32,000 bases of DNA from the NCBI GenBank assembly GCA_008080745.1, contig SHMX01000012.1, positions 1 to 32,000 of the forward strand. Direction: 5' to 3'. The DNA comes from Candidatus Thorarchaeota archaeon (GTDB taxonomy: Archaea; Asgardarchaeota; Thorarchaeia; Thorarchaeales; Thorarchaeaceae). Shown one piece after another: positions 15,136 to 16,765 of the stretch. The notes under the pieces are model-generated. The model made no database searches. It was given only the letters and a program-made list of their open reading frames with translations, and was not told where the DNA came from. Both the position numbers and the translations under genes were made by a program. Positions within the stretch are counted from its first letter, which is position 1. Every line of letters starts with the position of its first letter.

Positions 15136-16188
15136 CTAGTCAACCTCCAAGTCTTCCAAACCATCAAGTTCTGAGAAGATTTCCTCCTCGTCTAGTATCT
15201 CTGAAACACCCGGGTTAAGCACACGGAGTAACATTGCATCAGCTTTCTCAATGATAGCTTGACGCTTTTTACCCCCAACTGTTGCGCCAATTCTGATTGC
15301 GTGTATGTCAGGGTTGATTTCTTTCTCATCAATATCTTCAGGACGCTCAACACGTACCTCGATGTATCCCGAGGGATGAAGTCCTCGCACAGCCTTTGGT
15401 GTTCGATATCCTGATGACACCATTGCAATGCGACCTTTCTTCTTCTCACGTGTGGCGCTATCGATACCACGAACTTTTCTCCAGGAATCACTAACTCGCT
15501 TCCATCGATGAGCTTGCTCATGACGGAAGGCAGGTTTCCGCTTTTTCATTTCGGCAGAGATTCTTCGAAGTCTAGGATCATGAAGGGTTTCCCTGGTTGG
15601 AAATTCGGGTTCTTCCTTCTTTTTCTTCTCTTTCTTCTTCTTCTTTGGTTTGGGTTTTGGTGTGGGTTCAGCCTTTGGTTCCTTCTTTGGCTTTTCCTTT
15701 GGTTTAGGTTTAGCCTTAGGTGCTTCTTCCTCTTCTTTGGGAAGCATCTTCTTAGCTGCTGCTATCATCTTCTTTGCAGTAGCAGCGCCAACACCATCCA
15801 CTTTTTCTGCCAATTCTTTAGGATCTGCTTGAGATACCTTCAAGACCGATTTGTATCCAGCTGCTTTCAGACTCTCTACAGTAGAGGGTCCAACACCTGA
15901 AATATCTTGGAGTTCAGGCTTCTTTGTCTTCTTCGGCTCTTTCTTGGTTTTCTTAGCAGACTTTTTCGCTTTGGGCTTTGTATCTTTAGACTCTTCAGGA
16001 AGTAGCTTCTTTGCTGCTGCTATCATCTTCTTTGCAGTAGCAGCGCCAACACCTGAAACCTTCTCAGCCAACTCTTTAGGGTCAGCACGAGAGAGTTTCA
16101 GCACAGTCTTGTATCCAGCCTCTTCGAGGCTTTCAGCTGTGGAGGGGCCTACTCCCGGAATATCTGAAAGTTTGGGCTTCTTTGACAA
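15136..16188 (-). CDS. rpl32e: 50S ribosomal protein eL32 fused to two N-terminal helix-hairpin-helix modules
   Basis: eL32 core FRHEQAHRWKRV..WRKVRGIDS..GYRTP..RGLHPSG; two IxGVG..VxGVG repeats; TTG start with GGAGG SD. Confidence 0.95.
   Translation of the reverse strand: MSKKPKLSDIPGVGPSTAESLEEAGYKTVLKLSRADPKELAEKVSGVGAATAKKMIAAAKKLLPEESKDTKPKAKKSAKKTKKEPKKTKKPELQDISGVGPSTVESLKAAGYKSVLKVSQADPKELAEKVDGVGAATAKKMIAAAKKMLPKEEEEAPKAKPKPKEKPKKEPKAEPTPKPKPKKKKKEKKKKEEPEFPTRETLHDPRLRRISAEMKKRKPAFRHEQAHRWKRVSDSWRKVRGIDSATREKKKGRIAMVSSGYRTPKAVRGLHPSGYIEVRVERPEDIDEKEINPDIHAIRIGATVGGKKRQAIIEKADAMLLRVLNPGVSEILDEEEIFSELDGLEDLEVD
15742..16176 (-). repeat. Intragenic tandem duplication of the HhH module, period 258 nt
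   Basis: 41-nt perfect identity between 15755-15795 and 16013-16053. Confidence 0.9.
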
Positions 16189-16201: not shown

Positions 16202-16765
16202 TTATACTATCGATTTCACACTTTCGCCCTTTCTCTTCCTGATGACATAGATACCATCCATGAAGACACGTCGGTCTTTATCACGAATCTTACAGGCAAG
16301 CTGAATATTAGCAGCACTCTGAGATACATGTTCAATATCGATGCCACTGATTATGACATCATCTTCGGTGATCTCTAATTTGACATCACCAATTAGACGG
16401 GCGGTTCTAACACCTCGTTCACCGATGAAGTTCTTAATCAGGACCTCCTGGCCTCTTTGTTCTACAGTAATTGGAAAGTGACTATAGACAATCTTCATTT
16501 CATAGGTATAACCATGGGTCACGCCAACGAACATATTTCTCAAGTGTGCGATTATTGTTCCAACAAGAGCTCGAGTCTTCTTTCTACTAATGAAAGTAGT
16601 AGCTACAACCTCGTTATTCTCGATTTCTATTCGAGTCTGTGGTTCAGGGAAGGATCGCTCCAATGTACCAAGAGGTCCACTGACAGTCAACTTACTTCCT
16701 TCTAAGACTACTTTACAGTCTTCTGGAATTTCAATCCGTTTTTCGTAAACCGCTTTATTAGACAT
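16202..16765 (-). CDS. rpl6: 50S ribosomal protein uL6
   Basis: VSGPLG, MKIVYSHFPI, NFIGE, KDRRVFMDGIYV. Confidence 0.98.
   Translation of the reverse strand: MSNKAVYEKRIEIPEDCKVVLEGSKLTVSGPLGTLERSFPEPQTRIEIENNEVVATTFISRKKTRALVGTIIAHLRNMFVGVTHGYTYEMKIVYSHFPITVEQRGQEVLIKNFIGERGVRTARLIGDVKLEITEDDVIISGIDIEHVSQSAANIQLACKIRDKDRRVFMDGIYVIRKRKGESVKSIV

Follow-up and report, generated by a model that had tools for sequence, protein, structure and literature searches.

Ribosomal protein eL32 of a Thorarchaeal genome with two RadA-type helix-hairpin-helix modules on a putative nucleic-acid-binding arm

Why does a ribosomal protein carry two copies of a helix-hairpin-helix (HhH) module in front of its ribosomal core, and what could such an arm do? 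The question was raised by the eL32 gene of a Candidatus Thorarchaeota archaeon (assembly GCA_008080745.1). The window, i.e., the whole stretch of DNA that was analysed, comprised 32,000 nucleotides (contig SHMX01000012.1, positions 1 to 32,000). The gene was located in a ribosomal-protein operon between uL6 and eL19, with uL5, uS14, uS8 and uL6 upstream and eL19 and uL18 downstream. These neighbours were named by reading their translations rather than from family models. The Shine-Dalgarno-like motif of eL32 immediately adjoined the stop codon of uL6 (16202-16204). The same-genus orthologue P0003 (350 aa) was annotated from the position matching the TTG start. The identity as eL32 was given by Pfam PF01655 (Ribosomal_L32e; 110.5 bits, cut-off 25), covering model positions 1-108 with residues 218-325, and by the plain eL32 model NF006332 of NCBIfam with 135.2 bits (cut-off 120). 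PF01655 had a single match in the genome, so each ribosome should carry the two-module eL32. The fused frame was open and was kept in more than 100 homologues. From the N- to the C-terminus, the protein consisted of an (HhH)2 module, linker 1, a second (HhH)2 module, linker 2, the eL32 core and an acidic tail:

15136..16188, minus strand: eL32 gene, 350 codons plus stop, TTG start, sole PF01655 match in the genome
16197..16201, minus strand: GGAGG Shine-Dalgarno-like motif, read from the sequence, 8 nt upstream of the TTG
15997..16173, minus strand: HhH module 1 (aa 6-64), hairpins GVG and GVG, pLDDT 87-92
15916..15996, minus strand: linker 1 (aa 65-91, 27 aa), 13 K/R and 4 D/E, net charge +9, predicted disordered
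15739..15915, minus strand: HhH module 2 (aa 92-150), hairpins GVG and GVG, pLDDT 83-89
15574..15738, minus strand: linker 2 (aa 151-205, 55 aa), Lys/Pro/Glu-rich, net charge +8, predicted disordered
15199..15573, minus strand: eL32 core (aa 206-330), Pfam match aa 218-325 at nt 15214-15537
15139..15198, minus strand: acidic C-terminal tail (aa 331-350), net charge -10, family-conserved motif

The N-terminal arm before the core thus held about 205 residues. A first-pass annotation of the region 15742-16188, which takes in the two modules and linker 1, had described two modules of about 60 aa at a distance of 86 codons, followed by a charged, KPKE-rich linker ahead of the core. Both descriptions were borne out. 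The modules comprised 59 codons each and lay 258 nt apart from start to start, and linker 2 contained 21 K/R, 13 D/E and 12 P. The Pfam family HHH_5 (PF14520) matched two stretches of the protein with a total of 99.9 bits (cut-off 27), and all four hairpins across both modules had the canonical G-hydrophobic-G form. The acidic tail contained the conserved motif EE(D/E)LF(S/T/A/E)(E/D)L(D/E), and a tail with this motif terminated every eL32 of this Thorarchaeal family. A short helix was predicted in the tail at aa 334-344 with low confidence.

The structure prediction proposed in the first-pass annotation was carried out with AlphaFold2 on an alignment of 18 rows. It returned two well-folded helical modules (block pLDDT 83-92) and disordered linkers, with residues 66-88 and 152-189 below pLDDT 50. 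Each module was modelled with four helices of at least four residues plus a short N-terminal helical turn. The pTM value was low (0.24), as expected of beads on a string. Foldseek matched the modules to the N-terminal domains of RadA/Rad51 with an rmsd of 0.9-1.0 Å and 43-47% identity over 55-56 residues, and the core to its eL32 counterparts in archaeal ribosomes. The RadA models of NCBIfam aligned to residues 3-71 with 80-81 bits. The earlier identification of the modules as (HhH)2 domains was thereby specified as the RadA/Rad51 N-terminal type (PF14520), in agreement between score, predicted fold and the two hairpins.

Several known systems resembled this architecture in part. In RadA/Rad51, the same fold with a close sequence sits on a recombinase ATPase core, whereas here it was placed in tandem on a ribosomal protein. 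Over the two-module region, the best Foldseek match was the tandem HhH unit AR1-AR2 of Escherichia coli NusA (8y5l_NA, 149 columns), and the tandem HhH of topoisomerase V was also among the matches. Like this eL32, NusA and the topoisomerase V of M. kandleri carry repeated (HhH)2 units per chain, but those units are packed together, while long, basic and disordered linkers kept the eL32 units apart. With TIGR01954, the model of the NusA repeat, the score was 27.9 bits, below the cut-off of 48.15, which rules out membership of that repeat family; as judged from the predicted model, the resemblance to NusA is structural only. The closest counterpart was found in haloarchaea. In Haloarcula marismortui L32e (PDB 1JJ2, 1S72 and 4V9F), the order of HhH, linker and eL32 core is the same, and module 2, linker 2 and the core aligned to positions 6-230 of 9l94_Q and 14-237 of 1s72_Y. 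The E-values of these alignments ranged from 8.5e-34 to 3e-32. The haloarchaeal protein has one module and an acidic linker, in contrast to two modules and a Lys/Pro-rich linker here. In the genetically tractable Haloferax, eL32 likewise has a single HhH. The statement in the first-pass annotation that some euryarchaeal eL32 have a single N-terminal HhH was thus confirmed for haloarchaea by H. marismortui and by the NCBIfam model NF009401 (PRK12766; HhH-eL32, 238 positions). Module 2, linker 2 and the core covered positions 7-233 of this model, yet the score of 189.9 bits stayed below the cut-off of 239 and excluded membership of the equivalog. Judged by this score, the protein has the NF009401 architecture with a sequence outside the curated equivalog. 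Only 142-144 of the 240-241 residues in the H. marismortui L32e chains were modelled, and the HhH part was absent from the crystal models. The homologous HhH is therefore not fixed on the mature 50S subunit. Searches of the literature on eL32 or L32e in Asgard archaea, Thorarchaeota and Haloarcula returned no description of an HhH arm on eL32.

The two modules formed a direct repeat on the DNA level. Positions 15734-15926 and 15992-16184 were 77% identical at a spacing of 258 nt (86 codons). Over the 59 codons of the modules, identity was 76% for DNA and 81% for protein, and 22 of the 48 codons for the same residue differed synonymously. The excess of amino-acid over DNA identity and the many synonymous differences indicate purifying selection on each copy. 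Misassembly of a repeat was considered and is unlikely, given copies of only 76% identity, a longest common run of 41 nt and a two-module gene in G001. This independent genome of the same genus, which was recovered again as locus L080, encodes an eL32 of 350 aa with 85% identity to the one studied here.

The first-pass annotation had further suggested a recent duplication or gene conversion. A recent duplication did not hold. Module 1 shared 86% nucleotide identity with module 1 of G001 and 76% with module 2 of its own gene; module 2 was also 76% identical to module 2 of G001. In a tree of modules, the two module-2 copies clustered with a support of 87/91. Because module 1 was nearer to its orthologue than to its own neighbour and the module-2 copies clustered, sequence comparison places the duplication before the split of the two genomes. 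Gene conversion fitted the data. The perfectly identical stretch of 41 nt that had been noticed earlier was located within both modules:

16013..16053, minus strand: 41-nt exact run, copy in module 1, candidate gene-conversion tract
15755..15795, minus strand: 41-nt exact run, copy in module 2

The run corresponded to 13 consecutive identical codons. When the codon states were shuffled 200,000 times, runs of this length or longer arose with a frequency of 8e-5. In G001, the same tract showed five synonymous and one non-synonymous difference between its two modules. These six differing codons rule out a genus-wide constraint on the nucleotide level as the cause of the run. One tract position was GCT (Ala) in both modules here and CCT (Pro) in both modules of G001. 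Taken together, the rarity of the run, the differences in G001 and the shared GCT versus CCT are best explained by gene conversion over a short tract in this lineage. In four other genomes, the modules of multi-module eL32 genes likewise had identical stretches of 29-44 nt in common.

A survey of HhH copy number in Asgard eL32, likewise proposed at the outset, revealed 0 to 4 copies. In Thorarchaeota, the arm is a trait of the whole family, and its copy number spanned this range in the sampled genomes. Among the 120 best database homologues, counted without the window's own protein (P0002), 98 had one module, 20 had two and 2 had four. The family survey covered 24 genomes of 16 genera, of which 23 were scored since the eL32 of G022 was cut off at a contig end. 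Modules were absent from 6 genomes (four genera); one module was found in 11, two in 3, three in 1 and four in 2. With 7 further genomes of the family, copy number differed within genera (one versus two in g3, two versus three in g12). The 46 species representatives of the Thorarchaeota type whose N-terminus was complete (in two more loci it was truncated or incomplete) had one module in 37 cases, two in 6, three in 1 and four in 2; they were ranked by a two-module query, which misses forms with no module. A double HhH is hence not the standard of the lineage: one module is usual, and two or more were present in about one fifth of the representatives retrieved. On a quick tree of the core and tail without the arm (145 columns), at least 10 changes in copy number were required, at least 5 of them between one or fewer and two or more. 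In the module tree, this genus, G015, G007 and G012 showed lineage-specific expansion or homogenisation, as did modules 2-4 of the four-module genus. Other Thorarchaeal eL32 with one, three or four modules share the gene, its operon slot, the acidic tail and the module family with the two-module form and differ in copy number. The two-module eL32 is a copy-number variant of a known HhH-eL32 fusion.

Related arms were also detected beyond Thorarchaeota. Among the representatives of clusters at 50% identity, 26 eL32 had one N-terminal module, including one labelled Methanoperedenaceae; several others were strongly acidic. Two acidic, halophile-like eL32 had two (P0133, 346 aa) and three (P0128, 418 aa) N-terminal HhH modules, and multiplication of the module is thus not confined to Thorarchaeota. 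In two other Asgard families, f7 (L027, L028, L050, L051) and f19 (L043-L045), all seven eL32 carried a C-terminal HHH_5 behind an acidic linker, with a best E-value of 1.4e-10. A protein labelled Candidatus Freyrarchaeum guaymaensis belongs to one of the two families. Their C-terminal domains were acidic and the glycine hairpins degenerate. From its sequence and position, this domain appears to have been acquired independently, with the same fold joined to the opposite end of eL32. Recurrent attachment of HHH_5, N-terminal in Thorarchaeota and haloarchaea and C-terminal in the two Asgard families, suggests a selectable function at this spot of the ribosome.

In this genome, the module was not restricted to eL32. 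The genome ORFs were searched with a profile of the two eL32 modules, and the matches were identified by Pfam. Eight ORFs were obtained: eL32, eS25, Rpo6, topoisomerase VI-A (Top6A), two HEAT-repeat proteins, RadA and a DUF4332 protein. The HhH was C-terminal in eS25 and N-terminal in Rpo6, and Top6A contained four. In 23 of the 24 genomes of the family, Rpo6 carried its HhH, also where eL32 had none. An N-terminal HhH-like fragment of Thorarchaeota Rpo6 was mentioned in a paper of 2026 (PMC13257274), whereas no paper was found on an HhH arm of eS25. The attachment of HhH arms to core information-processing proteins is a Thorarchaeotal habit that is wider than eL32 and undescribed. In eS25 (L033; G000, contig C1:72328-73209, minus strand), the HHH_5 followed an extension of about 150 aa and had the highest score to the eL32 profile among the modules outside eL32. 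Many, though not all, genomes of the family had the eS25 fusion, and G007 and G022 seem to have two modules.

Taken with the single gene and the basic disordered linkers, the RadA-type arm is putatively a non-specific binder of duplex nucleic acid, a reading to which we assign a probability of roughly 60%. The most likely function of the arm would be flexible, multivalent and non-specific nucleic-acid binding. The eL32 core would anchor on the solvent side of the 50S subunit at rRNA domain II, as in other eL32, and the N-terminal arm would swing free of the ribosome. Each module would grip the phosphate backbone of a duplex via its two G-hydrophobic-G hairpins, the basic linkers would supply additional non-specific affinity, and two modules would provide avidity above that of one. 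Since the same module is present on RadA, topoisomerase VI-A and Rpo6, double-stranded DNA or structured RNA near the ribosome is most likely the putative ligand, and by analogy this company favours DNA. Some observations restrict how far the reading extends. Four genera of the same family lack HhH on eL32, so the modules are dispensable, and variation in copy number may be nearly neutral. Simple backbone binding is disfavoured at least in f7 and f19, because their C-terminal HHH_5 is acidic and without glycine hairpins. A bolder extension would have DNA-binding HhH modules on eL32, eS25, Rpo6 and topoisomerase VI hold ribosomes on or near the chromosome, as a factor-free and avidity-tuned coupling of transcription and translation or as nucleoid-anchored translation, with the eL32 copy number setting the strength of the tether; we regard this as quite unlikely.

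The arm might instead be directed to rRNA, chaperoning or clamping nascent or expanded rRNA helices as an assembly or stabilising element that does not reach DNA or mRNA. The position of eL32 is suitable for this: in eukaryotic ribosomes the protein is bound to rRNA domain II next to eL6, eL33 and eL14 and is incorporated early during assembly (PMC12825303, PMC8860606), and in yeast no other protein is added to domain II before it (PMC12825303). Long Lys/Thr/Pro-rich N-terminal extensions are also kept on the eL32 of Thorarchaeal genera that lack HhH, so that the basic tail appears to be the constant part and the HhH an add-on. However, the mature 50S subunit of H. marismortui shows no ordered HhH on L32e, with the residues modelled as given above, the modules are closest to the DNA-binding N-domains of RadA/Rad51, and a rapid change in copy number is unexpected at a fixed rRNA site. 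An rRNA-directed role is thus considered unlikely.

HhH domains can also make protein contacts, and AR2 of NusA binds the C-terminal domain of the RNA polymerase alpha subunit. The modules on eL32, eS25, Rpo6 and the HEAT-repeat proteins could accordingly be docking units that bind each other or a shared partner and link ribosome and polymerase. The NusA structure that gave the top Foldseek match belongs to a transcription-translation coupling complex, eL32, eS25 and Rpo6 have the module in common, and the C-terminal HHH_5 of the two Asgard families lacks nucleic-acid hairpins. Canonical G-hydrophobic-G hairpins were nevertheless kept at both sites of both modules, and the NusA repeat model remained below its cut-off. 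The HhH of Rpo6 also occurred where eL32 has none, so the two do not form an obligate pair. Protein docking is very unlikely on this balance. A complex prediction for the eL32 arm (aa 1-150) and the HhH region of Rpo6 (aa 1-95) scored 0.00 and carries no weight either way. Nor is it probable that the second module has no function of its own and is a transient state of near-neutral duplication, loss and conversion on a disordered tail. The differences in copy number within g3 and g12, the recurrence of exact runs between modules in other multi-module genes and the genera without any copy would be expected from such turnover. Against it, the two modules and all four of their hairpins were in place before the two same-genus genomes diverged and have remained intact, and the higher identity of protein than of DNA, with many synonymous differences, points to purifying selection on each copy. 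Such turnover without function appears highly improbable for the second module.

On the preferred reading of a nucleic-acid-binding arm, all ribosomes of this Asgard archaeon should bear an arm that is long and flexible and probably binds nucleic acid. The arm has been repeatedly gained, multiplied and lost. To our knowledge, such an arm is absent from most archaeal and all eukaryotic eL32. Should the ligand be DNA, the arm would bear on where translation is placed with respect to the chromosome in the lineage nearest to eukaryotes. Should it be rRNA, the arm would be a protein counterpart of rRNA expansion segments.

The hairpins differed between single- and multi-module forms. Single-module Thorarchaeal eL32 mostly had a degenerate second hairpin (GLS), while both modules of this genus had two canonical ones. 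Among the modules of L080-L127, the second hairpin was degenerate (GLS and similar) in 31 of 38 from single-module eL32 and canonical G-hydrophobic-G in 20 of 23 from multi-module eL32, a pattern rather than a statistic as the rows are related. The eL32 frames also varied in length. Among the matches listed for 200 genomes of the phylum, all frames of family f1 had at least 264 residues, and those of other families mostly had about 136-250, with longer frames of up to 305 residues in f4, 266 in f19 and 277 in f27; 48 further matches lay outside this list. The eL32 without HhH carried long histone-H1-like tails of Lys/Thr/Pro/Ala repeats instead. These tails were N-terminal in g5, g10, g13 and g14 (L017, L018, L021-L024, L055) and C-terminal in family f27 (L040-L042). 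To judge from these sequences, a basic disordered tail seems to be more constant on eL32 than the HhH.
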